A stretch of DNA of 64,000 nucleotides from a virus (IMGVR_UViG_3300044296_000239), one strand, 5' to 3'. Counted from the stretch's first letter, positions 3,080 to 57,072 are shown. Notes: generated from the sequence alone by a model not told the origin. Program-made: numbers and translations.

Positions 3080-3087
3080 TATTTATA
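3080..3087 (-). promoter_or_regulatory. T4-type late promoter TATAAATA
   Basis: rc of tatttata, about 25 nt upstream of the 1732..3054 start. Confidence 0.45.
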
Positions 3088-5963: not shown

Positions 5964-6394
5964 TATCGTAATCTCTCTAATATGATTGTTACTGTGCTAA
6001 CTTGTTCTGTAGCTATAACTTGAAATGTAAGTGATACATTATATGCATTATTGTCAATGTCATCACTAATGTCTATATTTTGTACAATAACTCGTGGTTC
6101 AAAGTTATCGATTGTGCGTTGTATAGCCATCTCTATGTCATGCATAGTGATTGGATCAGCTAATTCAAATAATAATCCTCTAATTCCAGAGCCAATTTCA
6201 GGTTGAAATGGTCTTTCCTGAAAGTTAGTTTGCATTAGATTTCTTACTGAGTTTTTAATAGCTTCAACATCTTTTAGTGGATTTATATCTCCGCTAATTG
6301 GATTAGGTTTAAAAAGCAAATCTAAGTCGCTATGAACTACAGAGCTTATAATAGACGCTGGGGATGAAGAATCTGATGGGTTTTGAGTACGCAT
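5963..6394 (-). CDS. 25: baseplate wedge protein gp25 (GPW/gp25 family)
   Basis: 143 aa; motifs IKNSVRNL...RPFQPEIGSGI...FEPRV match recalled T4 gp25 (IKNSLLGI...RPFDPEFGCDL...YEPRI). Confidence 0.8.
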   Translation of the reverse strand: MRTQNPSDSSSPASIISSVVHSDLDLLFKPNPISGDINPLKDVEAIKNSVRNLMQTNFQERPFQPEIGSGIRGLLFELADPITMHDIEMAIQRTIDNFEPRVIVQNIDISDDIDNNAYNVSLTFQVIATEQVSTVTIILERLR

Positions 6395-11918: not shown

Positions 11919-11926
11919 TATTTATA
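11919..11926 (-). promoter_or_regulatory. T4-type late promoter TATAAATA
   Basis: rc of tatttata; about 35 nt upstream of the 10976..11884 start, in a divergent intergenic region. Confidence 0.45.
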
Positions 11927-12369
11927 TGTCAACATACAAAGGTTTTTATCGGGTGAAGAACCCAGCGAAATATGAAGGCGATTTTAAGAATGTCGTCTAT
12001 AGATCACATTGGGAGATGCAAGTCTTTAGATGGTGTGATTCTAATGATCAGGTGTTAAAATGGAGCTCTGAAGAGACAGTGGTGCCTTATTGGCTTCCTC
12101 TGGATAAAAAATATCATCGATATTTCGTGGATTTAAAGTTTACAACAGTAGAAGGCACATTTTTAATCGAAATCAAGCCAAAATCACAAACCTTACCTCC
12201 AAAAAAGCCATCTCGTCAGACAAAAAAGTATTTAGAAGAGTCTAGGACATATGTTAAGAACGTATGTAAGTGGAAAGCAGCTGAAAATTATGCTAAAGAT
12301 CGTAATTGGAAGTTTTTAATATGGACAGAAGATACAATTAAATCGATGGGCATCAGATTACTTACATAA
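11926..12369 (+). CDS. 4: head completion protein gp4-like
   Basis: 147 aa; KNPAKYEGD...VVYRSHWEMQVF...VLKWSSEE..PY...KKYHRYFVDLKF pattern resembles gp4-family head completion proteins. Confidence 0.55.
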   Translation: MSTYKGFYRVKNPAKYEGDFKNVVYRSHWEMQVFRWCDSNDQVLKWSSEETVVPYWLPLDKKYHRYFVDLKFTTVEGTFLIEIKPKSQTLPPKKPSRQTKKYLEESRTYVKNVCKWKAAENYAKDRNWKFLIWTEDTIKSMGIRLLT

Positions 12370-19602: not shown

Positions 19603-20100
19603 TCATAGTAAGCCTTCCTCTGTCTGTGGTGGTGCCGATGGGGTGGCATCACTATAACGATACACATACTCGGTCTTTGGTGTGTAGGGAAAATCTACGT
19701 AGACACGAGACTCTCGACACGTGTAGTGCGACTTATATGGATCTTCCTTCGTGCCGCTCCATTCCCAAAATACCTTACCATTGATGTCATATGCTCGATC
19801 GCTGCCATAGTCCTTGAACACATGCGATGCTCTCATGTTTTGGTAGTTGTGTCCGGTATCACGCCACTCCCAATCCTCACCAGTCAATGGCGTGATGGGC
19901 TCGAAGGATGCGATCTTCTTAAACAATGATATCGCATACGGCGCGGTGCTACCGCTGTGTCCTTCCTCTGCAAACACCTCGATCATCTTCATCACGTGCT
20001 TACAGATCATCTCTTGCATCTCATCATTAAACTTGCCATGCTCATCGACCCAACCCGCGGCACGAAACTCTGTCAATGCATGTCTCTCAAAATTATTCAT
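19603..20100 (-). CDS. hypothetical protein
   Basis: 165-aa ORF; C-terminal Pro-rich acidic tail encoded by a repeat shared with the ORF ending at 18634. Confidence 0.55.
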   Translation of the reverse strand: MNNFERHALTEFRAAGWVDEHGKFNDEMQEMICKHVMKMIEVFAEEGHSGSTAPYAISLFKKIASFEPITPLTGEDWEWRDTGHNYQNMRASHVFKDYGSDRAYDINGKVFWEWSGTKEDPYKSHYTCRESRVYVDFPYTPKTEYVYRYSDATPSAPPQTEEGLL

Positions 20101-27297: not shown

Positions 27298-28194
27298 TCA
27301 TGATTCTTGTGCTAACTTGCTGAAGTAACTTAATGTAGAATCATCTTCGTCTTCAGCAGATACTGGTACCATTTTTGGTGCAGCTGTTCGTGCTGATGGT
27401 GCAGATGATGACTCATCTAAAGTAATTGATTCAGCCGTTGTACGTGGTGCAGATCCACCGAGTACACGCTCAAGCTTTGCCTTCAACTCATCATATGACT
27501 TGTATTTAGAAGGATCAGTAAACTCTTTCAATGAATAGCATTTGCCATAGATTGATTCAAGTTCATCTTCATCGCCGTTTGCAACAGCAGTAACTTTATC
27601 GAACTCTGATTTGTCATAGTTACGATAACCTTCAACATTACGAATCTTCAACTTGAAGTTTGCACCTTCCCATAGATCAAACGGATTTACCGGTTGCTCA
27701 TCTTGGAATTGTGGTTGCATAACATCCATCATTTTGTCATAAATTTTCTTACCATATTGGAATAAGAAAACTTTACCTTCATTTTCAGGATGTGCAGGAT
27801 CAGATACAACAAGGATGTTAGACACATAGTGAAGACGACGCTTCTGCTTGCGTGCAATATCTTTATCAGATTCTAGTCCGCTGTTCCACAACTTGGTGTT
27901 AACTTCACCAACTGGATCGTTTTGACCAATCGACGTGAGAGACTTCTCAATATACCAACCACCAGGACCTTGAAAGCCGTGATCCCAATAACGAGTCCAC
28001 GGATAATCATCGCCTTCGGGTGCAGGTAAGAAACGAATTACAGCAAAACCGTTACCAGCTTTGTCAACTTCAGGTTTCCAAAATCGATTGTCTTCGTATG
28101 ATTGTTGTTGTTGACCTCCACCTACTTTTTCCGCTGCTGCGACAAGTTTATTGATAGAGGATGCGCGTTGCGCCTTGAGATTTGCTAATGACAT
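27298..28194 (-). CDS. 32: ssDNA-binding protein gp32
   Basis: [34 protein letters not shown] and WEGANFKLK match T4 gp32 ([43 protein letters not shown]); start trimmed to MSLANLKAQ. Confidence 0.9.
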   Translation of the reverse strand: [298 protein letters not shown]

Positions 28195-28240
28195 ATTATT
28201 TTCCTTTATGTAGCAATATTTTACACTATATGGAATAACT

Positions 28241-28270
28241 ATTATACCACATCCACACTCGATTGTAAAC
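28241..28270 (-). promoter_or_regulatory. sigma70-like early promoter upstream of gene 32
   Basis: minus: GTTTACA-N17-TGTGGTATAAT. Confidence 0.55.
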
Positions 28271-28862
28271 AATCTTTGAGTGCTTCTTTGACTTTTTCGT
28301 TATTCACCGTTATAAATGGATTATACTTCTTGATCTTCTTCGAGAGTTCGGGCCACATGATGGGATCCGTAATCTGTTTGTCGAACTTCGGCATGAATCC
28401 AATATATCGATTCAATACAATAAAAACCTCTAATGGTATCTCGTCTTGAAGTAACATCTTGACGAGTTTAGGATGTTGTCCATCCTCTACCACAAATAGA
28501 CTCTTAAAGTCATTCGTCGATACAATCTTATCTATACAAGTTTTGAAGCGATATGTGAAGGATTCTTGCAAAGATTTAAAAGCTTTGTAAGTCTCATCCG
28601 CACGGTCTTCATTCAAATCACCAATCCACTTGGTGCCATGATGTGCAAAATTACATGCATAGAAAGTTTTAAGCTCATCGAGTCCATACTTCTTTACTAC
28701 CTTTGCAAAGAAAAATTTATCTCGACGAGCGAAAAATGATTTTGCGTTTACACTCGTCTTACCGTTATATTTAAAGTAATCATAAGTGTTTGATTCAAAG
28801 TGAAGCTTACAACCGATATAAATCTTGTATGCATCAAATGGATCAGTCGAACGTAAGCTCAT
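28242..28862 (-). CDS. 59: helicase loader gp59
   Basis: FFARRDKFFFAKVVKKY and KWIGDL match T4 gp59 (YQKRRDKYFFQKLSEKY, AWIGDI); immediately upstream of gene 32, as in T4. Confidence 0.75.
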   Translation of the reverse strand: MSLRSTDPFDAYKIYIGCKLHFESNTYDYFKYNGKTSVNAKSFFARRDKFFFAKVVKKYGLDELKTFYACNFAHHGTKWIGDLNEDRADETYKAFKSLQESFTYRFKTCIDKIVSTNDFKSLFVVEDGQHPKLVKMLLQDEIPLEVFIVLNRYIGFMPKFDKQITDPIMWPELSKKIKKYNPFITVNNEKVKEALKDCLQSSVDVV

Positions 28863-40836: not shown

Positions 40837-41289
40837 TTAGAATGAAACTTTCAAACCAGCAGAAACTACATTACCATCAAAGTTATTTACGCGAGATTGA
40901 ATCGCGCTTTGATAGCGATAATCTGCAGTCAATGCGACTGATTTAGTTAATGAATAGCTTGCGCCTACACCAACTGAGCCTTGCCAACCACTAGCAGTAG
41001 ATGTTGGATCAACAAATGCAACACCAACTTTAGGAGTAATAGTAACTCCAGCAACTGTTGCTACATCATAACCAGCAACTAAGCTGTAACGATTAGTGTC
41101 ATTAGAGTTTTGTGTATAGCGTTCAAATCCGCCAGTAACAGAAGTCTTACCAAACTTTTCGCCGAGTGTTACACCAAAACCATTTTTATCTGGATTTTGT
41201 GAATAATCACGTTGAGCTGTAAGACCAACTTCTACTGCTTGTGCAGAACCTGCTACTAACAATGCTAAAATAGCTAATTTAACTTTCAT
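40837..41289 (-). CDS. outer-membrane beta-barrel protein (OmpX/Ail/Lom-like 8-strand type)
   Basis: 150 aa; signal MKVKLAILALLVAGSAQA; alternating hydrophobic beta-strands with Gly/Tyr girdles; C-terminal beta-signal ending in Phe (GLKVSF). Confidence 0.6.
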   Translation of the reverse strand: MKVKLAILALLVAGSAQAVEVGLTAQRDYSQNPDKNGFGVTLGEKFGKTSVTGGFERYTQNSNDTNRYSLVAGYDVATVAGVTITPKVGVAFVDPTSTASGWQGSVGVGASYSLTKSVALTADYRYQSAIQSRVNNFDGNVVSAGLKVSF

Positions 41290-41324
41290 TGAAATATTTC
41301 CTTTTCTAGTTTAAAGATCAAGAG

Positions 41325-41704
41325 TTGGTTTTTCTGTTACGAGGTAAACCAACTTAAACCCTAAGCAGCGTTTAGGCTGCTAATGCATAACTTTCGTCAT
41401 TTGCATTTACTTAGTTTGCTTCTTCGGCCAAGTTTCCTCAACCCTACGGGTTTCACATTCCCGTGTTGCCGTCTCTACTATCTACCTCTGTCGAAACCAT
41501 GGCATCCCCATCAAAAACATACTAAGGTGAAATGAACTTACTAAGTAGAGGTTCCGGCTTACCAATCCTGATCCCAACCTTTCGGTTTTGTAGAGATTTA
41601 AGTATGTTTTTGGTGGAGATGGGCGGAGTCGAACCGCCGTCCAGAAGTCCTTCGCTTTGAAGGGATTACAACAATTCCTCGTCCACTTTCTTCCAGCTAT
41701 TTTT
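41325..41704 (-). ncRNA. ssrA: circularly permuted (two-piece) tmRNA gene (ssrA); acceptor piece about 41611-41704, coding piece about 41325-41510
   Basis: coding piece: GGGGAUGCCAUGGUUUCGAC...GGGAAUGUGAAACCC (P2) ...GCA AAU GAC GAA AGU UAU GCA UUA GCA GCC UAA = ANDESYALAA*; upstream acceptor piece: T-arm GGCGG-UUCGACU-CCGCC then CAUCUCC-A-CCA, which pairs with GGGGAUG; candidate promoter TGGACA-N16-TATACT at 41711-41738. Confidence 0.7.
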
Positions 41705-41832
41705 GCCTTCAGTATAGTGTCCTATATATTTTTGTCCAGTCTCTTGATCTATTAATAACCATTTACCAGGACATTTTGTGCGAATAGTTAAAGTTTTAGC
41801 TTCATCTAATTCTTTAACACTTGTACCATCTT

Positions 41833-42435
41833 TTAATTTACGTTTTCTGTCCATGTTGCAACAATATATTTTTCATTAGAAATAGGAGGATTGCCGCGAT
41901 GAGTATGTGTATATCCAACAGGGAAAAGAACAATTCTTCCTTTTTTTGGTTTAATTCTTCTAGGATAATACAAAAATTCAGTTTCTCCACCCTCGTCAAC
42001 ATCATTAAGATAAATCAAAATGGCCAATATTCTATTACTATCTTCTTTTCCACTATTTTCATAATGCCATACATGATATCCACCACCTACCGATGTTCGT
42101 TGAAGTCTATGACCCCATAATCCATAGCCTCTAGACAATAAAACATCATATTTTTTATTATATTCATCAATACATTCACGAATGGCTTTATTCATGACAC
42201 CAGCTAAGAATGTATTAATGACTTTTACATCATCCAAATGTTCTTCATGTAAAAAATATGTTGTATCATCTTTGTGAACTTTTTCAATTCTTTCAGCTTC
42301 TTGTCTACTAAACGTACGTTTATTAGTTAATGCCCATTGATCCACATAATGGTAATGATTAATCAATTGTTCACAAATAGTTTCTGGCAAAATATCATCA
42401 AATACACCAATAAAATCTTGAATATCACTTTTCAT
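41833..42435 (-). CDS. 2OG-Fe(II) oxygenase, prolyl-4-hydroxylase-like
   Basis: 200 aa; GGETEF, HTHRG and C-terminal strand GRIVLFPVGYTHTH; paralogue of 48077..48622. Confidence 0.65.
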   Translation of the reverse strand: MKSDIQDFIGVFDDILPETICEQLINHYHYVDQWALTNKRTFSRQEAERIEKVHKDDTTYFLHEEHLDDVKVINTFLAGVMNKAIRECIDEYNKKYDVLLSRGYGLWGHRLQRTSVGGGYHVWHYENSGKEDSNRILAILIYLNDVDEGGETEFLYYPRRIKPKKGRIVLFPVGYTHTHRGNPPISNEKYIVATWTENVN

Positions 42436-43446: not shown

Positions 43447-43773
43447 TTAACCTAACTTCTCTATACCGAACTTTGAAATACCAAAACGAGTTGGACCAGG
43501 ATTTGGATAAAAACCAGTTAGCACATTAGAAGAACCTGTAATTGGATGACCACACGATGCTAAATCGCCCGTCCTACATATGGCTATACCACAAGCAAAC
43601 ACGTCAGCAGCGGCTTCTTCCATAACTGGTGCATCATGTGGTGATCTACCATGACCTGCAATAGCAGCGCCTTTTACAACAATTGGTGATCCATTTACAA
43701 ACACAGTAGGAGCTAGATTGCCGACTACTACTCCGCCCGCTTTGTCAACACCTACTCTAGAAATTCCTGGCAT
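43447..43773 (-). CDS. PAAR-repeat spike-tip protein (gp5.4-like)
   Basis: 108 aa; VFVNGSPIVVKGAAIAGHG...ICRTGDLASCGHPITGSSNVLTG matches the PAAR pattern. Confidence 0.55.
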   Translation of the reverse strand: MPGISRVGVDKAGGVVVGNLAPTVFVNGSPIVVKGAAIAGHGRSPHDAPVMEEAAADVFACGIAICRTGDLASCGHPITGSSNVLTGFYPNPGPTRFGISKFGIEKLG

Positions 43774-43802
43774 GAGATATCCTTATAATATCTCTATTTA
43801 TA

Positions 43803-46879: not shown

Positions 46880-47073
46880 TGATTTAACACCCAGTCTTCT
46901 GCACTATTTTCAGCATCAAGTAAAGTTGAATAGCGATTATTAAAACCAGTCAATAAACCTTCATGAGTACGTTCTACGATGTACTCGCGTGTTTTAAGGT
47001 CTTGATAAACCGTAGCACGTCTACGGTTTTCCCCATAAAACTTTGAACATTCTCTTAAAGGTTTATCTGGCAT

Positions 47074-48006
47074 TTAGATCTCCACTACTTTCAATTTCCA
47101 TTCATCGGCTCGAGCTTCATAGTGAATATAACCTCGAGGATTACAAACAACTCTGCAGTTCTCACCAACCATATAATCAAAATCTTCATGTGTATGACCA
47201 TGAGTCCACAGTTTGATATTAGGACGATTCACAATGAATTCTTCTAAGTCACTATGGTAACCACCATTCATGATTGCATCATGTTTATAACGAGGATGAC
47301 ATGATTGATGACTTGGACTATGATGAGTACAGACTACATACTTCTTTGGATCTTCACCAAGATGTGCAGTGCACACTTGAAGGTATTGCACAAACTTATC
47401 AAACTCATCCGCGGCATCTTCAGGAGAAAAACGAGAAGGCTCTTCTTTCTTCTTCATACCAATCTGAATCATCTTGTTGTTTTCATCAAACTCATAACCT
47501 CGTCCATCTTCTTTTTCTTTGTAGATTGGAACATTACGGTACACTTGACGGTTGCTGTTTTTAATAATACGAAAATCATTCATCATATCTTTCATGTTGA
47601 ATAAAGTAAGCGGATCACGCTTATTCATATCAGTCCACATTGTACCGCCGATGAATGACACACCTTCGATCTCTCTATATTCATTATCCAACAAATATAC
47701 ATTATCAAGATGCTCGAGATTTCTCTTAAGATATGGTGCAGTAAATTTGAAGTCATAGTTGTAATGTTCATGATTACCAATCACGTACACAACATGTTTA
47801 AAATTCTTTGAACACATCTTGAAGAAGTCAACAAAACTAGCTGCTTTTCTTGAGTGCGGCATGTCGCCATAAGCTGCAGCAGTTGTATCAAAATCTTTTG
47901 CAGTACAGATGTCGCCGCTCAAAACAAGCACATCTGCACCTTCAGTATTTTCAAATTGTAGTGGTCCAAATTCTAAATGGATATCACTTGCAATTGCAAT
48001 TTTCAT
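47074..48006 (-). CDS. calcineurin-like metallophosphoesterase
   Basis: 310 aa; ASDIHLEF, GDI, GNHEHY, GHTHEDF motifs; preceded by an early promoter. Confidence 0.75.
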   Translation of the reverse strand: MKIAIASDIHLEFGPLQFENTEGADVLVLSGDICTAKDFDTTAAAYGDMPHSRKAASFVDFFKMCSKNFKHVVYVIGNHEHYNYDFKFTAPYLKRNLEHLDNVYLLDNEYREIEGVSFIGGTMWTDMNKRDPLTLFNMKDMMNDFRIIKNSNRQVYRNVPIYKEKEDGRGYEFDENNKMIQIGMKKKEEPSRFSPEDAADEFDKFVQYLQVCTAHLGEDPKKYVVCTHHSPSHQSCHPRYKHDAIMNGGYHSDLEEFIVNRPNIKLWTHGHTHEDFDYMVGENCRVVCNPRGYIHYEARADEWKLKVVEI

Positions 48007-48032
48007 AAGACACCTTTACATATTATGGGTAT

Positions 48033-48061
48033 ATTATACCACATTTTTTACATGCTGTACA
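48033..48061 (-). promoter_or_regulatory. sigma70-like early promoter
   Basis: minus: TGTACA-N17-TGTGGTATAAT. Confidence 0.5.
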
Positions 48062-48076
48062 TGTAGTGCTTAAATA

Positions 48077-48622
48077 TTACGTATAATGTAAGTATGTACC
48101 AGCAATGTATTTTGCATTAGAGACTGGTGGAAGACCAGCATGTGGGTGAGTCCACATTGGGGGAAACATTAGCAAACGTCCAGTTTTTGGCTGTACTCGC
48201 ATATCATGATCGATACCGATGAAGGCAGTTTCACCGCCTTCTGCTAAATTATTGAGATAGAAAAACATGACAAGGAATCGACGAGCAGATGCATGATCTC
48301 CTACGTCAACGTGTTCCCTAAACTCATCTTTACCACCGACTTCATACTTCTTCATGCGAACTTGTTCAAAGCCGATTTGTTTAGGGAAAAATTTAACGTT
48401 ATGTTGTTCGCAATACTTATCAACGAATGGCTGTACTCGCGAAAGGATATAATTTTGATCTTCAGCAAATAATGGAATTTGACCGAAATTTATTTCATTG
48501 AAGTTCTTGTATGAATCTTCTCTACGAATCCACGCAGTTTTATTGCGTTCAAATTTATCAATAAGACCTTTGCAAAAGTCTTCTTCTAAAACATTATCAA
48601 ATACAGAGATATAATTCTTCAT
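48077..48622 (-). CDS. 2OG-Fe(II) oxygenase (P4H-like), array member 1
   Basis: 181 aa; EHVDVGDH (HxD), GGETAF, HPHAG. Confidence 0.7.
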   Translation of the reverse strand: MKNYISVFDNVLEEDFCKGLIDKFERNKTAWIRREDSYKNFNEINFGQIPLFAEDQNYILSRVQPFVDKYCEQHNVKFFPKQIGFEQVRMKKYEVGGKDEFREHVDVGDHASARRFLVMFFYLNNLAEGGETAFIGIDHDMRVQPKTGRLLMFPPMWTHPHAGLPPVSNAKYIAGTYLHYT

Positions 48623-49272
48623 TATTCTACCACAAAATTAATATTAAGCAAATACCTAGTTTTAAAATTCATTGGATTACTAGGAGCGTGATAACGAAGT
48701 CCATCGAAACATACAATTCTTCCTTGTTGAGGAGTAACTCGTGCAGCTACTGTCGTATGAATATCAGAACCAGGTATATTGTGTTTTGGTTCGAATCGTT
48801 CATTCATAATGATAGTATCACCATCGCTGTCATTAATATAATAAATTAAAGTCTTGTGTTGGATCTCTGTATCTGTATGAATACCATTACAGTTATTTTC
48901 AGAAAACCCGTGTAACGGAATCTGTTTATTAATTTTCATCCGCAAGATTTTTTTTACATTTAATCCGGCTTTTTCAGCAAACAAATCTAGTATGAATAAA
49001 CCCATGTAATAAAAACATTCTGGTTGATGAATCACTTCTGGATCATCTGGAGATCTTGCACCACCAGTATAAGCTAATTTTACCAAGCATGGAGATTCTT
49101 TAATTTCTAAACCTTCGCATGAATAATTGCGTGCTTTCCAATAATCTCCAGCTGAGACTTCTTCATTAAAATCAAGCCAATGTAAATTTCTATCTGTTAC
49201 AGAGTCTAGAATTCTTCTTTGTAAATTTTTAGGAATAAGATCATCATATACGACAATATCATCATTATTCAT
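48622..49272 (-). CDS. 2OG-Fe(II) oxygenase-like paralogue (subfamily with NDSDGDT motif), array member 2
   Basis: 216 aa; HTDTE...H, YYINDSDGDTI, GRIVCFDGLRYH. Confidence 0.6.
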   Translation of the reverse strand: MNNDDIVVYDDLIPKNLQRRILDSVTDRNLHWLDFNEEVSAGDYWKARNYSCEGLEIKESPCLVKLAYTGGARSPDDPEVIHQPECFYYMGLFILDLFAEKAGLNVKKILRMKINKQIPLHGFSENNCNGIHTDTEIQHKTLIYYINDSDGDTIIMNERFEPKHNIPGSDIHTTVAARVTPQQGRIVCFDGLRYHAPSNPMNFKTRYLLNINFVVE

Positions 49273-49934
49273 TGTGTACCTCCTAAATTCATATTAAGTG
49301 TAAGTCTTCGTTTAGCTATTGTTGGAGTGCTGCTACTATGATAGCGCAACCCATTAAATTTAATACAACGCCCAGCTTTTGGCTCAATTCTAGCAGCTAT
49401 AGATAATTCTATTTCTTTATTATTATGAGATGGTTCAAACATTTCGTTATAAAGAATTGTATCTCCATCACTATCATTAATATAATATAATAAAACATCA
49501 TGTGGATATTCCGCATCAACGTGTGGAAAATTAATATTGTTTATTGGCGCATTATTAAGCTGATTAATTTTCATTCTATATAAACGATTAAAGTTCCAAT
49601 TAGTTTTTTGTGCAAACATTTCACATATAAACAATGAATGTTGTAAAGCCCAATATGGATCATACCACTCTTTATCATGAAAAACAGAATGTGTCAATCC
49701 TGGATTATCAATCCACTCAATTTCATCAGTTGACTTATATGTTCTAGGAATTTCAGAACGTGTAATATTTTCTAAATAAAACCAATTAAAATCTTTATCT
49801 AAAGCTTTTTGTGCATATCGTTCAACAAAACTCTTTGGCAAAAAATCATCTAATACAATTATATCATTTGGTAAATTCATAGTTTGCCGCAATTGATATG
49901 CGTTCTCCATGTGGATTTTTAAATGGCCAAACAA
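49269..49934 (-). CDS. 2OG-Fe(II) oxygenase-like paralogue, array member 3
   Basis: 221 aa; HVDAEYPH, YYINDSDGDTI, GRCIKFNGLRYH. Confidence 0.6.
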   Translation of the reverse strand: MFGHLKIHMENAYQLRQTMNLPNDIIVLDDFLPKSFVERYAQKALDKDFNWFYLENITRSEIPRTYKSTDEIEWIDNPGLTHSVFHDKEWYDPYWALQHSLFICEMFAQKTNWNFNRLYRMKINQLNNAPINNINFPHVDAEYPHDVLLYYINDSDGDTILYNEMFEPSHNNKEIELSIAARIEPKAGRCIKFNGLRYHSSSTPTIAKRRLTLNMNLGGTQ

Positions 49935-50514
49935 AGTGTTGACATTTTGGTGGAAAAATAAAAATATCTCCTACTTCTGGTCTATGGGCAAATTTATCAT
50001 TAGAAAAATCCATGTATTCACCATATTTCCATGCAACCATTCCACCATGACATGCAATGTCTTCTTCAGTTGGTGCTGGAATTTGAATATACATTACGAA
50101 TGACACATCCCCCGGGTGATGATGTAATGCATGCATATCTCCAGGTTTTTGTATATTTGCCCAAAGCGATGATTCTCCATCTTTATCTTTATAAGGACGC
50201 ATCGTTTCAACTTGTTGTATACATTTTTCAGATAATTCTTCTGACATACGTATTGATCCACGTAATTCTAAAAAATAATTTAGAATATGACGTTTAACTT
50301 CACTGTCAAATAACTTAAATTCTTCAGGAGTAAAATCCATCATTGGATTTGTACCATTAGTAAACTGTCCTGCTTTAGAACTTCTATTTAATGATGGATC
50401 TTGACGTACACGTTGAATAGCATTATAACACATCTCTAAAACATTAGCATCAATACTTGCTTTATAAATTGCTGGACCAAATGGATATATTACTGCGGGC
50501 ATGGTTCCTCCCAA
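49864..50514 (-). CDS. 2OG-Fe(II) oxygenase-like paralogue (HHH subfamily), array member 4
   Basis: 216 aa; LHHHPGD, GDIFIFPPKCQH. Confidence 0.55.
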   Translation of the reverse strand: MGGTMPAVIYPFGPAIYKASIDANVLEMCYNAIQRVRQDPSLNRSSKAGQFTNGTNPMMDFTPEEFKLFDSEVKRHILNYFLELRGSIRMSEELSEKCIQQVETMRPYKDKDGESSLWANIQKPGDMHALHHHPGDVSFVMYIQIPAPTEEDIACHGGMVAWKYGEYMDFSNDKFAHRPEVGDIFIFPPKCQHFVWPFKNPHGERISIAANYEFTK

Positions 50515-51143
50515 TCAATACAAAACGAAACAGTCATTCTTAGTTCATCAGTCTTATTGGTTTTGATTTCGTGATCTAAATAACCTGGCCAAATTAACAT
50601 ATCACCAGTTTCAGGCATAAATGAATAATAGTTATTTAAAAGCCAGCGCTGACTCATTTCTTGATTTTTATAATACGCAAATGCATTTGGATTAGTAAAT
50701 TCAATTGATCCACCGACCATAGATTTTGGTACGTTCACATAGTATGTTCCAGCTAATAAAAATCCTGCATGATGGTGTCTAGCTTGATATCCATGTTTAG
50801 GATTAATATTAAACCACATCTTTGAAATTTTTAAACGAAGATCAGATTGAACTTCATTGCATCGTAAATCGCATTTTAAAACGGATATACGATTAGCTAC
50901 ATATTCACTAGAATTTTGTAATATTTTATTGACTAAAGGATAAAATTCTGGTAGTGTATGCAATTCACTAGTAAAATCATTATAAAAATGAGTAGTAAAT
51001 CCAGTATTATAAAAATTACCATCATTAACAGGAGATTTTGAATACAAATTCAAAATCCATTCTTTTATTGTTGTATGTGTATCTTCTGACAGTTTATCTC
51101 TAGAATATAATATTTCTGTAGAAAATGGAGTGATAATTTTCAT
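50490..51143 (-). CDS. 2OG-Fe(II) oxygenase-like paralogue (HHH subfamily), array member 5
   Basis: 217 aa; ARHHHAGF, GDMLIWPGYLDH. Confidence 0.55.
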   Translation of the reverse strand: MKIITPFSTEILYSRDKLSEDTHTTIKEWILNLYSKSPVNDGNFYNTGFTTHFYNDFTSELHTLPEFYPLVNKILQNSSEYVANRISVLKCDLRCNEVQSDLRLKISKMWFNINPKHGYQARHHHAGFLLAGTYYVNVPKSMVGGSIEFTNPNAFAYYKNQEMSQRWLLNNYYSFMPETGDMLIWPGYLDHEIKTNKTDELRMTVSFCIDWEEPCPQ

Positions 51144-51745
51144 ACTTTAGAAGCACCCAGCAAATTATAATTAATAATACATCTAGAGCTTTTAGTCGGT
51201 TGTGTACTGCTGTGATACGTATGACCATCAAAAATAACAACTCTTCCTTGTTTGGGTTCAACTTTCATCTTTACTGTCAATTTATCTAAACTTATATCAT
51301 GTTCTTTAATGTCGCTTAAAGTTTCATTATATAATACAGTTGGTCCATCGCTATCATTTACATAATATAATACGACTAAATGTGGAATTTCATAATCAAT
51401 GTGCGGATGATTTAATAGTTTATTATTTGGATCAGTTGGAAAATGTAAAAATGATCTTGCTCGCATCAGTTCATCGAATACAATACCTTGTTTATCGCAT
51501 ACTTCCAATAAAAGAGGATAAATCATATGATGCCATGGACTAAGAGGATTTGGGCTCCTAACATTATCATAATACAAATGAGATAAACCAGGTTTTGGAA
51601 TAAAACCAATTGGCATTTTACCCATTGGATATGTAATATCAGGCTGATAATACCATTCAATCTTTGCACTTAAAAGACTATCACGAATGTGTTCTTGATA
51701 AAGTTTCGAAATTACGTTGTCTAACACAATTGGTTCATCAAACAT
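51140..51745 (-). CDS. 2OG-Fe(II) oxygenase-like paralogue, array member 6
   Basis: 201 aa; HIDYEIPH, YYVNDSDGPTV, GRVVIFDGHTYH. Confidence 0.6.
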   Translation of the reverse strand: MFDEPIVLDNVISKLYQEHIRDSLLSAKIEWYYQPDITYPMGKMPIGFIPKPGLSHLYYDNVRSPNPLSPWHHMIYPLLLEVCDKQGIVFDELMRARSFLHFPTDPNNKLLNHPHIDYEIPHLVVLYYVNDSDGPTVLYNETLSDIKEHDISLDKLTVKMKVEPKQGRVVIFDGHTYHSSTQPTKSSRCIINYNLLGASKV

Positions 51746-52337
51746 TTTGTATAAAGTTTCCTAATAAATTAAAATTTATGATTGCTCTTGGATTATAAAT
51801 TGGTTGTTCTGCAGTGTGATAATTATCGCCATTAAATATAACACATCTTCCTTTTTTTGGAGTGATTCGTATTAATTCTTTAAAATCTTTTGCTTCTAAA
51901 TTAAAATCTACTGCATCAGTGCGTTTGTGATCTACTAGTATCGTATCACCGTCAGAGTCGACTATGTAATATAATACAACTAAATGCGGAAATGGTTGAT
52001 CAACGTGTAGAGCATCTACATCTTTAGACCTAAAATGTTCAGAGAGAGGAAGTTGTAAAAATGATCTAGCTTTTATTACTAAATCGATTTTAAAATTGAT
52101 ATGCTTACACGCTTCATAAGCAATAGGACTTACCATATGAAAATACTGTTCATCGTGGTATTTTTGAAAATCTGTAAATAGATGAGAAAATGCTGGTGTC
52201 TTGCGATGATTTGCACCGTTAGCATACGTAATATCATTTACAAAAAACCAAGGAGCTTTTTGTACAAATTCTTCTATTAAGACATTTTGATATGAAATGT
52301 CTATAACATCGTCAATAATTATTGGAGTATCAATCAT
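51738..52337 (-). CDS. 2OG-Fe(II) oxygenase-like paralogue, array member 7
   Basis: 199 aa; HVDQPFPH, YYIVDSDGDTI, GRCVIFNGDNYH. Confidence 0.6.
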   Translation of the reverse strand: MIDTPIIIDDVIDISYQNVLIEEFVQKAPWFFVNDITYANGANHRKTPAFSHLFTDFQKYHDEQYFHMVSPIAYEACKHINFKIDLVIKARSFLQLPLSEHFRSKDVDALHVDQPFPHLVVLYYIVDSDGDTILVDHKRTDAVDFNLEAKDFKELIRITPKKGRCVIFNGDNYHTAEQPIYNPRAIINFNLLGNFIQNV

Positions 52338-52384
52338 AATCTATATATCTCAAAAATTAGGGCCTCTGAAGGCCCTAAATTGAT

Positions 52385-52942
52385 TTACATCAAAACCCGC
52401 GAATGTTTTGGTACACCGCTTAATAAGTATTCCATTTGATCAGCAAGAATATTTCTATTCATGAGAATCATGTGTTCGTAGTGGTTTGGTTCATATGGAA
52501 TGTATAGTAATTCCAACCTAGCTTCTTTAAGAGTTCTGTCACTCTTCACAGAGTTACATTTCTTACAAGCTGTTACTACGTTCATCCAAATATTCTCACC
52601 GCCACGTGACACAGGAGTGATATGATCACGGGAAAGATTATTAGAAGTGAAATGATTACCACAGTAGGCGCAGACATGTCGATCTCTCGCGAATAGTGTT
52701 TTGTTACTCAAAACAACACGTCCAAATTTAGCTGGGTTAAATCCTTCACCGCCTTTAATGGCAATGATAGATGGAGATTCTAAATATGATTCAGTTCCAT
52801 CATTTTGCAAACCACCGCGGAATTTAGCGACTGGCTCACCAAGTGTCCATGCCACTTGATTTTTCGCATGATACATAATTGCTTGTTCGAAATTTAACCA
52901 TTGACGTGGTATACCACCCACATCAAGCGCTAGCACATTCAT
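52385..52942 (-). CDS. HNH endonuclease
   Basis: 185 aa; CAYCG...DHITPVSRGGENIWMNVVTACKKCN (HNH with zinc-binding Cys pairs). Confidence 0.75.
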   Translation of the reverse strand: MNVLALDVGGIPRQWLNFEQAIMYHAKNQVAWTLGEPVAKFRGGLQNDGTESYLESPSIIAIKGGEGFNPAKFGRVVLSNKTLFARDRHVCAYCGNHFTSNNLSRDHITPVSRGGENIWMNVVTACKKCNSVKSDRTLKEARLELLYIPYEPNHYEHMILMNRNILADQMEYLLSGVPKHSRVLM

Positions 52943-52975
52943 GATTACCTCATTTGTTGTTTCTCTTTATTTATC

Positions 52976-53051
52976 TGGTACCCAGTGTTGGACTCGAACC
53001 AACATCGCTCTCCTTGTAAGGGAGACGTATCACCTCTCTACGCAACTGGGC
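52976..53051 (-). tRNA. tRNA-Val(UAC)
   Basis: manual fold: acceptor GCCCAGU/ACUGGGU, anticodon loop CUUACAA, T-loop UUCGAGU, CCA encoded. Confidence 0.7.
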
Positions 53052-53174
53052 ATAATTCTTTGGGGTGTCATACGAGTATCGATCTCGTACCACCAGTTTC
53101 ACAGACTAGTATGCAGGCCACTACACTAATGACACCATAGATCAAAATACACTCTTTGAATACACTTTGATTTA

Positions 53175-53249
53175 TGGTAGGGGCACAGAGAATCGAACTC
53201 TGATTTACTGGTTAAAAGCCAGTTACTTTAGCCGTTAAGTTATACCCCC
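53175..53249 (-). tRNA. tRNA-Lys(UUU)
   Basis: acceptor GGGGGUA/UGCCCCU, anticodon loop CUUUUAA, T-loop UUCGAUU, CCA encoded. Confidence 0.7.
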
Positions 53250-53277
53250 ATCATCTTTCGAGGTTTATGTTTTCGTT

Positions 53278-53469
53278 TCATCGTCTTTTCTTCCATTCAT
53301 AATCGATACCATCTGGACATACTCCGTTTTTCACAGAATCTATACCAAACTTACCGCATACTTCCATGTTGTTTCCTTTGATTGTTACAAATGTACCCAA
53401 TTCTTTTGCGTACTCTAATGCTTCATCAAGTGTTTTAAATTGTTTTTCGTTTATACTATACATTATCAT
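53278..53469 (-). CDS. small hypothetical protein inside the tRNA array
   Basis: 63-aa ORF between tRNA-Lys and tRNA-Gly. Confidence 0.4.
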   Translation of the reverse strand: MIMYSINEKQFKTLDEALEYAKELGTFVTIKGNNMEVCGKFGIDSVKNGVCPDGIDYEWKKRR

Positions 53470-53470
53470 T

Positions 53471-53543
53471 TGGAGCGGGAGACGGGATTCGAACCCGCTC
53501 CGTCAGCTTGGAAGGCTGAGTCCTCTCCCAGGAGAACTCCCGC
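53471..53543 (-). tRNA. tRNA-Gly(UCC)
   Basis: acceptor GCGGGAG/CUCCCGC, anticodon loop CUUCCAA, T-loop UUCGAAU, CCA encoded. Confidence 0.7.
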
Positions 53544-53807
53544 AAATTAGATGGAGATAAGAATTCAATTCAGACCGCGATAAGTCGCTCAGCAACCTGC
53601 AACTAGCAATACGCAACATGCAGGCCACAAAGTCTATATTCCCATTAGCAATAAGCAGCGACTTAATGTCAGTATAATGGGAGCAACTAACTATGGGTTG
53701 GCCGTTGTTAGTCGGATTAGCTTTCAAGGCTAACCAATTCCAGTAAAAGTGGAATTGTTTGTGCGCTTATCTAATGCAGATCCTCTTATCCTTCTTACCT
53801 CCGAAAA

Positions 53808-54392
53808 TTAAACTAAACCTTCCTCTTGAAGAGTCAATTTAGTTGGATCACTCAATTGAATGAGTGTGTTAACATTTAGCTGCAATAGCTTATCAGCTAG
53901 ACCTTGACGCTCACGCTTCAACATCTTTACCGTTGCCTTTGCAGCTACGATATCTGTCTCAGATACCACAGTAGTGTCAACGTTGTTGTAACGTTCACCA
54001 TATAGTGCACTACGCGCATCTACTGGAGTTTGCTTCATCTTAACGATGCGCGCATTGATCTCGCTAACGTCTTTACGAGGCTGTGTATTTACAACTACGT
54101 TATTGATTGCGATCTGTGCATCAATTAATTCAACATCAGCCAATACATCGCTAATGCCGCTTTCAACGTTTGCACGTCCCACTGCAGCTCGAATCTGGTA
54201 CAAAGCTTTATTCAAAGCTTCTTTACGCTCAAGCGCTTGTTTAAATTCTAATGCACCTTTACTCAAGGTACCTTCTACATCTGCAGTGAATTCATTCACT
54301 ACGATATCTGTTTTTGTGTTTACGCCGCCAATTGCACGACGAAGTTCACTTTGGATTGCATTTGCTTTACGAAGATTAATTTGCATATTCAT
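53808..54392 (-). CDS. hypothetical protein
   Basis: start trimmed to MNMQINLRK (RBS AAGGAAA); the ORF-track N-terminal extension would run through tRNA genes. Confidence 0.55.
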   Translation of the reverse strand: MNMQINLRKANAIQSELRRAIGGVNTKTDIVVNEFTADVEGTLSKGALEFKQALERKEALNKALYQIRAAVGRANVESGISDVLADVELIDAQIAINNVVVNTQPRKDVSEINARIVKMKQTPVDARSALYGERYNNVDTTVVSETDIVAAKATVKMLKRERQGLADKLLQLNVNTLIQLSDPTKLTLQEEGLV

Positions 54393-54413
54393 TTCCTTTG
54401 CATTGTATAGTAT

Positions 54414-54443
54414 ATTATACCATAATTTTAAATTGTTGTAAAC
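54414..54443 (-). promoter_or_regulatory. sigma70-like early promoter
   Basis: minus: GTTTACA-N17-TATGGTATAAT; directly downstream of a tRNA 3' end. Confidence 0.5.
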
Positions 54444-54538
54444 TGGTACTCCCGACCGGATTCGAACCGATATCATTCCCTCATCTAGAGACATCGCCAA
54501 GGTATAAGCTTGGAGTTTTACCATTAAACTACAGGAGC
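54444..54538 (-). tRNA. atypical long tRNA-like gene (95 nt; anticodon loop CUUAUAC gives UAU; about 25-nt variable region)
   Basis: acceptor GCUCCUG/CGGGAGU, D-arm GUUU-AAUGGUA-AAAC, T-arm AUCGG-UUCGAAU-CCGGU, CCA encoded; identity unresolved. Confidence 0.45.
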
Positions 54539-54545
54539 ATTGATC

Positions 54546-54621
54546 TGGCACCCCGTAAAGGAATCGAACCTCTACCTCAACGTTCGTAGCGTTGTATGAT
54601 CATCCATTTCACCAACGGGGC
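54546..54621 (-). tRNA. tRNA-Arg(ACG)
   Basis: acceptor GCCCCGU/ACGGGGU, anticodon loop CUACGAA, T-loop UUCGAUU, CCA encoded. Confidence 0.7.
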
Positions 54622-54626
54622 ATTGT

Positions 54627-54702
54627 TGGTCCCGACACTTGGTTACGCACCAAGCTCTCTGGCTTTTCAGACCAGCGCTTTCACTAGATTAGCTTTATCG
54701 GG
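54627..54702 (-). tRNA. tRNA-Phe(GAA)
   Basis: acceptor CCCGAUA/UGUCGGG, anticodon loop CUGAAAA, non-canonical T-loop UGCGUAA, CCA encoded. Confidence 0.6.
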
Positions 54703-54711
54703 AAAATTAAT

Positions 54712-54788
54712 TGGTGCCCTAGGAGAGACTCGAACTCTCAGAACCTGGTTTCTAAGACCAGTACGTATACCAATTCCGTCACCAGGGC
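54712..54788 (-). tRNA. class-I-architecture tRNA with Leu anticodon UAG (identity uncertain)
   Basis: acceptor GCCCUGG/CUAGGGC, anticodon arm CUGGU-CUUAGAA-ACCAG, short variable GUUCU, T-loop UUCGAGU, CCA encoded. Confidence 0.55.
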
Positions 54789-54795
54789 ATTGTTG

Positions 54796-55437
54796 TTATT
54801 TCGATTTCATCAACTCATTGACAAAATCTAATAGTAATTGTTGTTTGGGTTTATACTTACCCTTCATCCATGTATATGAATCATACCAAAATTGTTCTGC
54901 TTCAGGATGACAACCTATTAGACCAACATTGTCTTGTATAATTGCCATCGGATCACCGTTCATGTATCTTGCATATGTTCTAAAATTTTCTTCACTTCCT
55001 GTAACTGCAAATCCATCGTAAAAGAACATTCTTTCCCGTCTACCGTTCCAGTCAACTTCCAAATCTTTTGCGTGCGGTCTTCTTGTATCTGTTCCTGGGC
55101 GAGTGATATACTGAGTTGTATCACAAGCATTAAGTATGCCAAAATAATGAGACCCTGCCCAATAACCTCCCATGCATATACCAATGTAGGGTCGACCGGA
55201 CCTGACAAATTTCCGTATATGATCTCTATTATTGACAAACAAGTGACGGAAAGAATCGCTATCACCGAACCCGCCCCCAAAACATATTGCATCAACCGTT
55301 TCAAAGAATCCATTCTCTACTTCCTGCTTAGTGAATAGTTTAAAATCATAATGAGAAGATAACGCAGCCATTATACCATTATTTGACTGCGTTGAACAAT
55401 ATGGTTGTGCAACAAATAAACCTATTTTTGGTTTCAC
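54796..55437 (-). CDS. class-I glutamine amidotransferase-like / BPL_N-like protein
   Basis: 213 aa; GGGFGDSDSF and GICMGGYW (nucleophile-elbow-like Cys). Confidence 0.4.
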   Translation of the reverse strand: MKPKIGLFVAQPYCSTQSNNGIMAALSSHYDFKLFTKQEVENGFFETVDAICFGGGFGDSDSFRHLFVNNRDHIRKFVRSGRPYIGICMGGYWAGSHYFGILNACDTTQYITRPGTDTRRPHAKDLEVDWNGRRERMFFYDGFAVTGSEENFRTYARYMNGDPMAIIQDNVGLIGCHPEAEQFWYDSYTWMKGKYKPKQQLLLDFVNELMKSK

Positions 55438-55451
55438 ATTTTTCCAATATT

Positions 55452-55525
55452 TGGAGCGGGTAGCGAGACTCGAACTCGCAAATAAACCTTGGCAAGGTTT
55501 CAGGTTACCTTTACATCATACCCGC
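55452..55525 (-). tRNA. tRNA-Gly(GCC)
   Basis: acceptor GCGGGUA/UACCCGC, anticodon arm AAACC-UUGCCAA-GGUUU, T-loop UUCGAGU, CCA encoded. Confidence 0.65.
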
Positions 55526-55755
55526 ATGTTTTTTAGATTGAACCTTTGATTTTAATGTCTGGAATAATTGCAGTAATTTTTACTTCTTTTTTATCCTCGG
55601 ACTCTAAATCATAATACTCATCTTTATTTATTGCTTCATCAAATTTTTCAGCTTCAGTTTTCTTTTTCTTTCCAAAGATAGCATCCCAACGATTATCATA
55701 TTCTTCTTGAGAAACACTAAATGGTCTTGGTTTACTTCCTTTTCCACCATCACTC

Positions 55756-55923
55756 ATTTTTTACCTCTGCGCTTTTCAACTTGTTTTTGTTTAATACGTC
55801 CGTCTAAGGCTTGAACTGTGTTTAACAATTTTTGTTTCCATTCCTCTTCACTGAGTGAATGCCAACCGACACACTTAGACGTCAACGATCTACCGCATGT
55901 ACACTTTTTATCTTCAGTCATAA
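55756..55923 (-). CDS. small Cys-containing protein (about 55 aa)
   Basis: MTEDKKCTCGRSLTSKCVGW...; below the ORF-track cutoff. Confidence 0.3.
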
Positions 55924-56564
55924 TAATTCCATTTTATGGATCTTTTTGAGACCTTTGTTTTTAACATAACATTAAAACTTAGCGAAATACGTTCTCCTAT
56001 AAAATTTCCTGGTTGTGTTCCGTGTTGTAACCAACTTGGAAATATAAAAATTTTACCCTGAGTTGGTTTAAATTTATATATTTCAAAATTATTAAATCCA
56101 GGCTTATAGTCAAAAACATACGTATTTGATATTGGTCCTCGAGGATCAGTAAAAAACAAATCTCCTGAACCTTCTGGTGCATTTAAATAAAATACACCCG
56201 AAAACATACTGTTTGGATGATGATGTATTTCATGCTGACTTTTATCAACGTGTGAATTTCCCCACATACAATTAATATGAAGATCTTCGTGTAAAATACC
56301 CATATCATCAACTGCAGCTGCAACTCTACTTAAGAATATATCTCTTATAGGAAACCACTCTTCTCTTAAGTGTAAATCATCTGGACTTACCCAATTTCCC
56401 AATCCAGAATAAACTCCACTATCTTCATTTTCACGAATATCTATAAATTTTTGTGTATATTCATTTAATATTGTTGTATCAGCTAAATGATATTCCCAAA
56501 TTCTAGTTGGAAATAAAGTATGTCTAATTGATTCATCAAATTGTGGAATCATATAATCTCTCAT
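55914..56564 (-). CDS. 2OG-Fe(II) oxygenase-like paralogue (HHH subfamily)
   Basis: start trimmed to MRDYMIPQF; EIHHHPNS, GKIFIFPSWLQH; the untrimmed ORF would read through tRNA-Pro. Confidence 0.55.
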   Translation of the reverse strand: MRDYMIPQFDESIRHTLFPTRIWEYHLADTTILNEYTQKFIDIRENEDSGVYSGLGNWVSPDDLHLREEWFPIRDIFLSRVAAAVDDMGILHEDLHINCMWGNSHVDKSQHEIHHHPNSMFSGVFYLNAPEGSGDLFFTDPRGPISNTYVFDYKPGFNNFEIYKFKPTQGKIFIFPSWLQHGTQPGNFIGERISLSFNVMLKTKVSKRSIKWNYYD

Positions 56565-56566
56565 GT

Positions 56567-56644
56567 TGGTCGGAGATACAGGATTCGAACCTGTGACCCT
56601 CTGCTCCCAAAGCAGATGCGCTAGCCAGACTGCGCTAATCTCCG
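56567..56644 (-). tRNA. tRNA-Pro(UGG)
   Basis: acceptor CGGAGAU/AUCUCCG, anticodon loop UUUGGGA, T-loop UUCGAAU, CCA encoded. Confidence 0.7.
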
Positions 56645-56649
56645 ATAAG

Positions 56650-56723
56650 TGGTGCCCCATCACAGAATCGAACTGCAAGCCTCGGATTACAAAACCGATG
56701 TTTTACCATTAAACTAATAGGGC
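56650..56723 (-). tRNA. tRNA-Thr(UGU)
   Basis: acceptor GCCCUAU/AUGGGGC, anticodon loop UUUGUAA, T-loop UUCGAUU, CCA encoded. Confidence 0.6.
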
Positions 56724-56739
56724 AAATAACTATATATCT

Positions 56740-56814
56740 TGGTGGTAATGGTTGGATTCGAACCAACGTTAGCTTCCGTATGAAGGAAGTGCAAGGCCTC
56801 TTTGCTACATTACC
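56740..56814 (-). tRNA. tRNA-Met(CAU), elongator type (or Ile-lysidine)
   Basis: acceptor GGUAAUG/CAUUACC, anticodon arm CUUCC-UUCAUAC-GGAAG, T-loop UUCGAAU, CCA encoded. Confidence 0.65.
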
Positions 56815-56818
56815 AATA

Positions 56819-56906
56819 TGGTGGGTGTTGATGGTAACGCTCCACGAACTCAACTTCCCACCTCTTAGAGTAACGGATTTACAGTCCGCCGGCGGGGGCA
56901 ACACCC
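56819..56906 (-). tRNA. tRNA-Tyr(GUA) candidate, class II, atypical T-arm
   Basis: acceptor GGGUGUU/AACACCC plus A-CCA; anticodon arm GCGGA-CUGUAAA-UCCGU; long variable region; T-arm does not fold canonically by eye. Confidence 0.4.
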
Positions 56907-56912
56907 TTAATA

Positions 56913-56990
56913 TGGCTGTGCATCTAGGGATCGAACCTAGCTCATTCCTGATTAACAGTCAGGCGCATACACCTTGCTTGCTCATGCACA
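56913..56990 (-). tRNA. tRNA-Asn(GUU)
   Basis: acceptor UGUGCAU/AUGCACA, anticodon arm CCUGA-CUGUUAA-UCAGG, T-loop UUCGAUC, CCA encoded. Confidence 0.65.
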
Positions 56991-56997
56991 ATAAAAT

Positions 56998-57068
56998 TGG
57001 TTGCGGGGGAAAGATTCGAACTTTCTAGGAAAAGCTTATGAGACTCTCCTCTACCCTGACTCCCCGCG
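56998..57068 (-). tRNA. tRNA-Met(CAU), initiator-like (C1xA72 mismatch), short
   Basis: acceptor CGCGGGG/CCCCGCA, anticodon loop CUCAUAA, T-arm GAAAG-UUCGAAU-CUUUC, CCA encoded; D-arm unclear. Confidence 0.45.
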
Positions 57069-57072
57069 ATTT

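Follow-up and report, generated by a model that had tools for sequence, protein, structure and literature searches.

Few accessory genes recur in marine T4-like phages as often as those for Fe(II)- and 2-oxoglutarate-dependent (Fe(II)/2OG) oxygenases. They were found in 14 of 16 T4-like cyanophages, in which "denV" formed a separate gene cluster and a link between 2OG and NtcA was proposed (Sullivan et al. 2010, PMC3037559). Cyanophages usually carry one to five such genes; S-SCSM1 carries 24, in the groups pfam13640, 13661, 13759 and 05721 (PMC9602691), and S-CREM1 carries ten, in the groups TIGR02466, pfam13759 and pfam13640 (PMC9964418). Melnitz was reported with one, gene 12, and myophages of OM43 and SAR11 are reported to have about one (PMC9004378). 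The present study concerns a stretch of 64,000 nucleotides (nt) from a virus (IMGVR_UViG_3300044296_000239), hereafter the window, in which seven consecutive genes at 48077–52337 and two outliers, designated 41833 and 55914 by position, encode members of this superfamily. To our knowledge, no substrate has been found for the phage 2OG oxygenases since they were first noted (2005–2010).

The window is part of the genome of a T4-like myophage, marine and uncultured. Its nine-gene set is a further instance of the feature documented in T4-like cyanophages, with a copy number towards the high end. The nine proteins fall into three families, here called A (PF13640-type, prolyl-4-hydroxylase-like), B (PF13759/TIGR02466) and C (DenV-labelled in databases), and the same three are found in cyanomyoviruses of the S-CREM1 and S-SCSM1 type (Kyanoviridae). 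The likeness extends to tandem co-oriented genes with overlaps of 1–8 nt, low identity between paralogues, and a tRNA-rich T4-like genome. For instance, nine of the S-CREM1 genes lie in one overlapping tandem array (open reading frames (ORFs) 72–80), are annotated as 2OG oxygenase or JmjC, and include B-like and C-like members; the gene order inside that array, however, is not the same as here. The carrier also differs from these phages. It is no known cyanophage, OM43 and SAR11 myophages are slightly nearer to it in gp32 and gp6, and its transfer-messenger RNA (tmRNA) is of the beta type. In tblastn searches, families A, B and C were found almost solely in Synechococcus and Prochlorococcus myophages, with a few copies of A and B, and none of C, in Pelagibacter and Methylophilales phages. 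No megablast match to positions 47000–53000 was obtained among GenBank phages, and the phage has no close cultured relative. Uncultured viral relatives do exist, namely L003 (from a 167.6-kb IMG/VR contig) and L004, at 77% and 67% nucleotide identity. The locus is a compact and well-conserved nine-gene example outside the cultured cyanophage lineages, and a clean target set for biochemistry.

Three families of Fe(II)/2OG oxygenases

The array genes are numbered g1 to g7 by increasing coordinate and, like the two outliers, lie on the minus strand. Together the nine are confirmed as Fe(II)/2OG-oxygenase paralogues, with the double-stranded beta-helix (DSBH, jelly-roll) core fold of the superfamily. 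Grouping by BLAST within the window gave family A (g1 and 41833), family B (g4, g5 and 55914) and family C (g2, g3, g6 and g7), and Pfam and PHROGs scans (phrog 61, 81 and 274) agree. The three subfamilies proposed in an earlier note on this DNA, the two outliers included, are thereby borne out. That note had counted nine or more paralogues. Nine were found, and no additional member was recovered when profiles built from the families were run against all window ORFs of at least 60 amino acids (aa), or when further oxygenase types (PhyH, JmjC) were sought in the other large window ORFs with Pfam and PHROGs.

These small (181–217 aa), single-domain proteins are very probably Fe(II)/2OG dioxygenases belonging to three old families, and they appear catalytically competent. 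All nine carry the C-terminal motif G(R/D/K)hhh(F/W)(P/D/N)..xH; it had been described with F and a final P throughout, and g5 departs from this in having W for F and no trailing P. The HxD/E...H facial triad is present in six of the nine (families A and C), and family B instead has an invariant HxH...H. A basic residue of the 2OG-binding type follows the distal His by 10–12 positions in each family: Lys in A (K171 and K189), Arg at +10 to +11 in C, and the Arg of an R-x-S/T motif at +11 to +12 in B. The earlier note had held that alignments lacking a conserved HxD/E...H triad would speak against the oxygenase assignment. That is formally the outcome for the three family B proteins, though their fit to PF13759 is good.

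Family A resembles solved prolyl 4-hydroxylases in sequence. The g1 protein (48077..48622; 181 aa) carries H104-V-D106, H161, K171 and GGETAF, and matches PF13640 (2OG-FeII_Oxy_3) with an E value of 2.4e-10 and phrog_61 with 2e-40. Its outlying relative 41833 (41833..42435; 200 aa) matches PF13640 at E 1e-13 and has H179 and K189; the proximal motif had been given as HxD, which needs correction to HxE (H124-Y-E126). Both exceed the PF13640 gathering threshold of 27 bits, with 41.7 bits for g1 and 52.4 bits for 41833, and the two are 27% identical (BLAST E 3e-23). Prolyl 4-hydroxylases (P4H) in the PDB, 3itq and 5hv0 (B. anthracis), are matched by g1 at E 6.5e-4. For the family, sequence matches are to the B. 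anthracis P4H (E 7e-8), a Phytophthora P4H and the PBCV-1 vCPH (E 4e-6). In the alignment with the B. anthracis P4H, the distal His falls on its counterpart, as does the Lys that follows ten positions later.

Family B comprises g5 (50490..51143; 217 aa; H123-x-H125, H191, R202-x-T), g4 (49864..50502; 212 aa; H127-x-H129, H189, R201-x-S) and 55914 (55914..56564; about 216 aa; H114-x-H116, H181, R192-x-S), with pairwise identities of 24–32%. All pass the 27-bit cut-off of PF13759, at 70.2 bits (E 2e-19), 51.8 bits (E 1e-13) and 81.1 bits (E 9e-23), respectively. Against the 62.5-bit cut-off of TIGR02466, g5 (87.1) and 55914 (83.4) pass and g4 (32.1) fails. The 55914 gene is embedded in a tRNA array, where the ORF as listed, starting at 56678, overlaps a tRNA-Pro gene (56567–56644); its orthologue in L003 is 78% identical. 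Seven residues are invariant over eight family B sequences (g5 numbering: W110, N112, H123, H125, Y135, H191 and R202). The pattern, H-I-H-P-H...H-E-V...R-I-S, recurs in two homologues of solved structure, 3bvc from Roseovarius (Ism_01780) and 2rg4 from Oceanicola, which are matched by g5 at E 1e-13, and over their full length by the family profile at E 1e-23. They are themselves "uncharacterized protein" entries from structural genomics and are uninformative on the reaction. This shared pattern makes family B unexceptional among its relatives, and it is the whole family that departs from the canonical triad.

Family C comprises g7 (51738..52337; 199 aa; H111-x-D113, H174, R184), g6 (51140..51745; 201 aa; H115-x-D117, H178, R188), g3 (49269..49880; 203 aa; H120-x-D122, H181, R192) and g2 (48622..49272; 216 aa; H132-x-D134, H195, R206). 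Pairwise identities range from 26 to 37%, with 37% between g3 and g2 and 36% between g7 and g6; the L003 orthologue of g7 is 88% identical, with a ratio of nonsynonymous to synonymous substitutions (dN/dS) of 0.08. The motifs HxDxxxPH and YY(I/V)NDSDGDT, by which the subfamily had been recognized, hold for the family but not to the letter, since g2 has HTDTEIQH without the Pro and g7 has YYIVDSDGDT. A database search returned 121 homologues, and for many of them a PF13640 match is already on record as precomputed. In an alignment of 71 sequences, H115, D117, H122, Y127, Y128, T136, H178, R188 and N192 are invariant (g6 numbering). The AlphaFold model is confident (pLDDT 93.4, pTM 0.90) and is a beta-rich DSBH whose top structural neighbours are of the PHD, P4H, PPHD and PiuC types. 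Comparison of families C and B with hhalign gave a probability of 15%, confined to the C-terminal strand, and hence the families are related at the superfamily level only. Family C is large: clustered at 50% identity, it has 1,164 representatives at E <= 1e-30, a number that rises to 4,173 at E <= 1e-10. Its bacterial homologues include 36 loci in Myxococcota, proteobacteria and Ponticaulis, and some of the low-GC contigs among them, filed as metagenome-assembled genomes ("MAG"), may be phage contamination.

The databases offer another identity for family C, that of DNA endonuclease V (DenV, pyrimidine-dimer glycosylase). The label is carried by phrog_274, which family C matches at E 1e-24 to 5e-38 (g7, 2e-27; g3, 2e-33; g2, 1e-24), and by many homologues in GenBank, RefSeq and UniProt (for example, L002 4992–5549 and S-SM2). 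When the model was compared with predicted viral structures, the best matches comprised cyanophage proteins bearing the name "DNA endonuclease V" together with proteins called "oxoglutarate/iron-dependent dioxygenase". Nevertheless, there is no match to the Pfam family Pyr_excise and no sequence match in the PDB, and S-CREM1 annotates its family C members as 2OG oxygenases while carrying a separate pyrimidine dimer glycosylase gene. Identity with T4 endonuclease V is refuted at the level of fold, as the predicted structure is that of a 2OG oxygenase with an intact HxD...H...R, and we give it practically no chance of being right. The DenV label on the phrog_274 family is a misannotation propagated across PHROGs, RefSeq and UniProt, and for a family of this size, so widely mislabelled in phage databases, it is worth fixing.

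Two further genes, 24742 and 26545, had been listed as possible relatives. They are paralogues of each other (39% identity), have no sequence link to the nine, and are predicted to adopt a dUTPase-like fold in place of a DSBH with the metal triad; they are rejected as 2OG oxygenases.

Organization and history of the array

The seven consecutive minus-strand ORFs span 48077–52337, with g7 first and g1 last in transcription. The arrangement described in the earlier note holds once the starts of g3 and g4 are corrected, the listed ones being artefacts of the longest-ORF rule. The likely start of g3 is the ATG at 49880, which gives an N-terminus (MNLPNDIIVLDD) matching those of its paralogues, and that of g4 is the ATG at 50502, with GGGAGG upstream. 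Gene calls on independent assemblies agree (203 aa for g3 and 212 aa for g4). With these starts the overlaps, from g7/g6 through g2/g1, are 8, 4, 13, 17, 4 and 1 nt. Such overlaps had been taken to suggest translational coupling. They are present, but short overlaps are usual for same-strand genes throughout the window (for example, at 4032, 5963, 8986, 26545, 42432 and 46349) and also occur in the S-CREM1 array, and therefore reflect ordinary tight packing of phage genes and are not specific to this array.

The gene order is kept in the uncultured relatives, where L003 has all seven genes and L004 has all except the start of g7. The orthologues share 58–88% protein identity, with dN/dS ratios of 0.06–0.27 that are approximate because dS is near saturation. 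Conserved order and these ratios indicate that the genes are real and constrained and are not chance ORFs.

In transcription order the families are laid out as C(g7)-C(g6)-B(g5)-B(g4)-C(g3)-C(g2)-A(g1). Neighbours of the same family share just 26–37% identity, the nine proteins as a whole being 20–37% identical to one another, and a rough neighbour-joining tree makes g2 and g3 sisters and places g6 with g7. The layout, the low identity and the tree grouping together point to ancient local tandem duplication followed by deep divergence. Cyanophage homologues reach up to 46% identity, so the paralogues have diverged as deeply from each other as from cyanophage proteins, and the duplications long predate this lineage. 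The array has a GC content of 0.31–0.33, the lowest in the right half of the window.

Proposed reaction and substrates

If the enzymes work as the superfamily does, each would bind Fe(II) through three residues, HxD/E...H in families A and C or HxH...H in family B, and 2OG through Lys (A) or Arg (B and C). 2OG would then be oxidatively decarboxylated, giving succinate, CO2 and an Fe(IV)=O species that would hydroxylate a C-H bond of the second, prime substrate. As that substrate we rank protein side chains first, whether of the host or of the phage, tentatively and by analogy, because family A resembles P4H in sequence and the best structural neighbours of family C are PHD, PPHD and PiuC-type protein hydroxylases. 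The model would be prolyl hydroxylation, which PHD/P4H enzymes carry out and which a bacterial PPHD performs on EF-Tu. The resemblance has its limits: identities to family C are 11–18% for the P4H/PHD enzymes (3itq/5hv0, PBCV-1 vCPH 5c5t, P. putida PPHD-EF-Tu 4iw3 and PHD2), and here there is no peptide-substrate-binding domain and no collagen-like substrate encoded in the window. That the set serves diversified hydroxylation targets, as the earlier note put it, is a reasonable conjecture, and one that stands in the cyanophage literature too (PMC9602691, PMC9964418).

Several results weigh against reading the nine as active oxygenases with protein targets. The family B metal motif, HxH...H followed by R-x-S/T, has no conserved carboxylate ligand, and a literature search for the function of PF13759/TIGR02466 found no characterized member. 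Family C stays below the 27-bit PF13640 cut-off (g2, 18.5; g3, 16.1; g6, 23.6; g7, 21.3 bits), and a PDB search with its sequence and profile gave no meaningful match, so that fold comparison alone placed it. A consistent gene neighbourhood, sought at the 36 bacterial loci of family C, was not found. The search for collagen-like G-X-Y or Pro-rich substrate ORFs in the window returned only spurious ORFs. The functions of the 2OG-oxygenase genes of S-SCSM1 "have not been specifically investigated" (PMC9602691). A literature search for characterized phage 2OG hydroxylases found only DNA enzymes of the TET/JBP type, a different family.

Nucleic acids are a second class of target, either through AlkB-like repair and demethylation or through hydroxylation of bases in tRNA or phage DNA, in which case the proximity of the array to the tRNA genes would reflect the substrate. 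The adjacency itself is borne out, with an HNH gene at 52385–52942 and tRNA genes at 52976–58863. Yet it is not kept in cyanophages carrying the same families: the S-CREM1 array lies beside prnA and an NTPase-like gene, and the S-SM2 copy lies between gp45 and gp44. Within the window, a conserved terminator-like hairpin parts the tRNA/HNH block from the array. The functional tRNA link read from adjacency is thus not backed. The suggestion of demethylation found no profile support either, as PF13532 (AlkB-like) and PF03171 gave no match to the nine proteins at E <= 1; evidence of a nucleotide-recognition lid of the AlkB type in the nine proteins is also lacking. Unlike AlkB-family demethylases, these proteins have P4H-type sequence relatives and PHD, P4H and PiuC proteins as top structural neighbours. 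We regard a nucleic-acid role as unlikely. Little probability is likewise given to a small-molecule pathway, in which the tandem enzymes would perform successive oxidations of an amino acid, lipid, sugar or secondary metabolite as in a biosynthetic cluster. Scaffold-forming or tailoring enzymes of other classes are absent from the array and its flanks, which hold just the HNH gene and a metallophosphoesterase gene. The bacterial neighbourhoods of family C are inconsistent between lineages, with DUF1552/DUF1592 pairs, a CARME-like methyltransferase or assorted oxidoreductases. The match of g3 to an FlmC-family 2OG oxygenase (E 7e-6) scores 26 bits, far under the cut-off of 240.

A metabolic role, in which consumption of 2OG and production of succinate would shift the nitrogen signal or energy supply of the host, was put forward for the homologous cyanophage genes as the NtcA/2OG hypothesis (Sullivan et al. 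2010, PMC3037559; repeated in PMC9602691), and the high copy number would suit it. However, NtcA-type sites (GTAN8TAC) are no more frequent in the window than chance predicts (14 found, 13.2 expected), with none upstream of the array, which weakens a cyanobacteria-specific explanation. The possibility of a non-cyanobacterial host, considered below, bears on it in the same direction. Moreover, nine paralogues in three families, under purifying selection and only 20–37% identical, suggest distinct prime substrates and not a redundant drain on 2OG. The metabolic role appears improbable. A further reading supposes a heterotrophic host, possibly beta-proteobacterial and OM43-like. The tRNA genes, a two-piece tmRNA and a glutamine amidotransferase-like (GATase-like) gene would form a "translation island", and the oxygenases within it or at its side would hydroxylate parts of the translation machinery (EF-Tu, ribosomal proteins, tRNA or tmRNA partners) and so retune host protein synthesis. 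This is a long shot. If true, it would separate the long-puzzling expansion of phage 2OG oxygenases from the cyanobacterial nitrogen/NtcA hypothesis and provide a concrete class of targets.

Expression, neighbouring genes and the carrier phage

The T4-type late motif TATAAATA is found ahead of structural genes at 3080, 11919, 40411 and 43795, and a scan for this late-promoter motif found none in 46–59 kb. The lack of the motif and the location in a region of tRNA genes and small ORFs suggest that the array is most likely expressed early or mid infection. Counting against a timing drawn from this single consensus, the motif is not enriched window-wide (7 observed against 7.35 expected). Matches to a sigma-70-like promoter in the window are not over chance either (39 observed against 44.8 expected). 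The outlier 41833 is placed differently. It closes a tightly packed minus-strand run (PAAR at 43447–43773, then 43038, 42432 and 41833) that encodes, in order, a PAAR spike-tip protein, an unknown 135-aa protein, a glycoside-hydrolase-19-like protein and the P4H-like enzyme. The run sits behind the late-promoter-like site at 43795–43802, and 41833 may accordingly be a late gene. In this putative operon, virion or lysis proteins might be the targets of 41833.

Upstream of the array in transcription order, after the tRNA genes, lies the HNH endonuclease-domain gene (52385..52942, minus strand; PF14279 E 8e-17, PF01844 E 1e-12), which is 95% identical in L003 with a dN/dS of 0.05. Between it and g7, a consensus scan identified a GC-rich terminator-like hairpin with a T-run (52357..52378, minus strand). 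L003 has a hairpin and T-run at the same place (6350–6376) with another stem, GGGGATC...GATCCCC in place of AGGGCC...GGCCCT, and thus the terminator-like element appears to be conserved by compensatory change. Immediately downstream of the array is a calcineurin-like metallophosphoesterase gene (47074..48006, minus strand; PF00149 E 1.4e-9), which adjoins the array in L003 and L004 too.

The T4-like nature of the carrier is evident from gp32 (27298–28272) and from gp59, a baseplate module (gp5, gp6, gp25, gp53 and a gp48-like gene) and the tail tube gene; the window also carries about 26 tRNA genes. For gp32, identity is 55% with the proteins of Melnitz (a Methylophilales phage) and HTVC008M (a pelagiphage) and 53% with those of Prochlorococcus phages; for gp6 the values are 40% (Melnitz), 38.5% (HTVC008M) and about 36% (cyanophages). 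The tmRNA (41315–41737, minus strand) is a two-piece, permuted form with the tag ANDESYALAA, scoring 131.7 bits with Rfam tmRNA_permuted and 122 bits with beta_tmRNA. It sits between 41833 and a gene for a small beta-barrel protein of the outer membrane that has a signal peptide (40837–41289, minus strand; PF13505 E 2e-7), and is partly kept in L003 (86% over 219 nt). Two-piece tmRNAs are known from marine myophages such as Melnitz, where they are of the alpha type (PMC9004378). The beta type may be a clue to the host. With gp32 and gp6 nearest those of Melnitz and HTVC008M and a tmRNA of beta-proteobacterial type, the host may not be a cyanobacterium, and the phage looks at least as near to heterotroph-infecting myophages as to cyanophages, a mildly unusual aspect of the locus. 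The outer-membrane beta-barrel gene implies a diderm host.

Several other genes were noted in passing. The tRNA array contains the class-I glutamine amidotransferase-like gene (54796–55437, minus strand; PF00117 E 1.5e-7, BPL_N E 2.4e-7) and a tRNA of 95 nt (54444–54538, minus strand) whose anticodon is UAU (Ile). Its variable arm is long and its CCA is encoded, an unusual form for a tRNA-Ile. A further tRNA at 54630–54702 (minus strand; Rfam 48 bits) was missed by ARAGORN, and its fold suggests anticodon GAA (Phe). Downstream of the tRNA array are genes for a peroxiredoxin-like protein (59170–59709, minus strand; phrog_2281 E 7e-67), a ClpP-like ATP-dependent protease subunit (62796–63503, minus strand; phrog_1827 E 1e-66) and a PD-(D/E)XK nuclease-domain protein (63469–63957, minus strand). 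A gene with a TnsA-like endonuclease N-terminal domain (11926–12369, plus strand; PF08722 E 5e-15) lies on the opposite strand between the blocks of tail/baseplate genes and may be a mobile or homing element. A homologue of Tad3, a type I Thoeris anti-defence protein (19603–20100, minus strand; PF25185 E 6e-31), is located inside a GC-richer stretch at 14–22 kb (GC content of 0.42–0.47 against 0.33–0.39 elsewhere).

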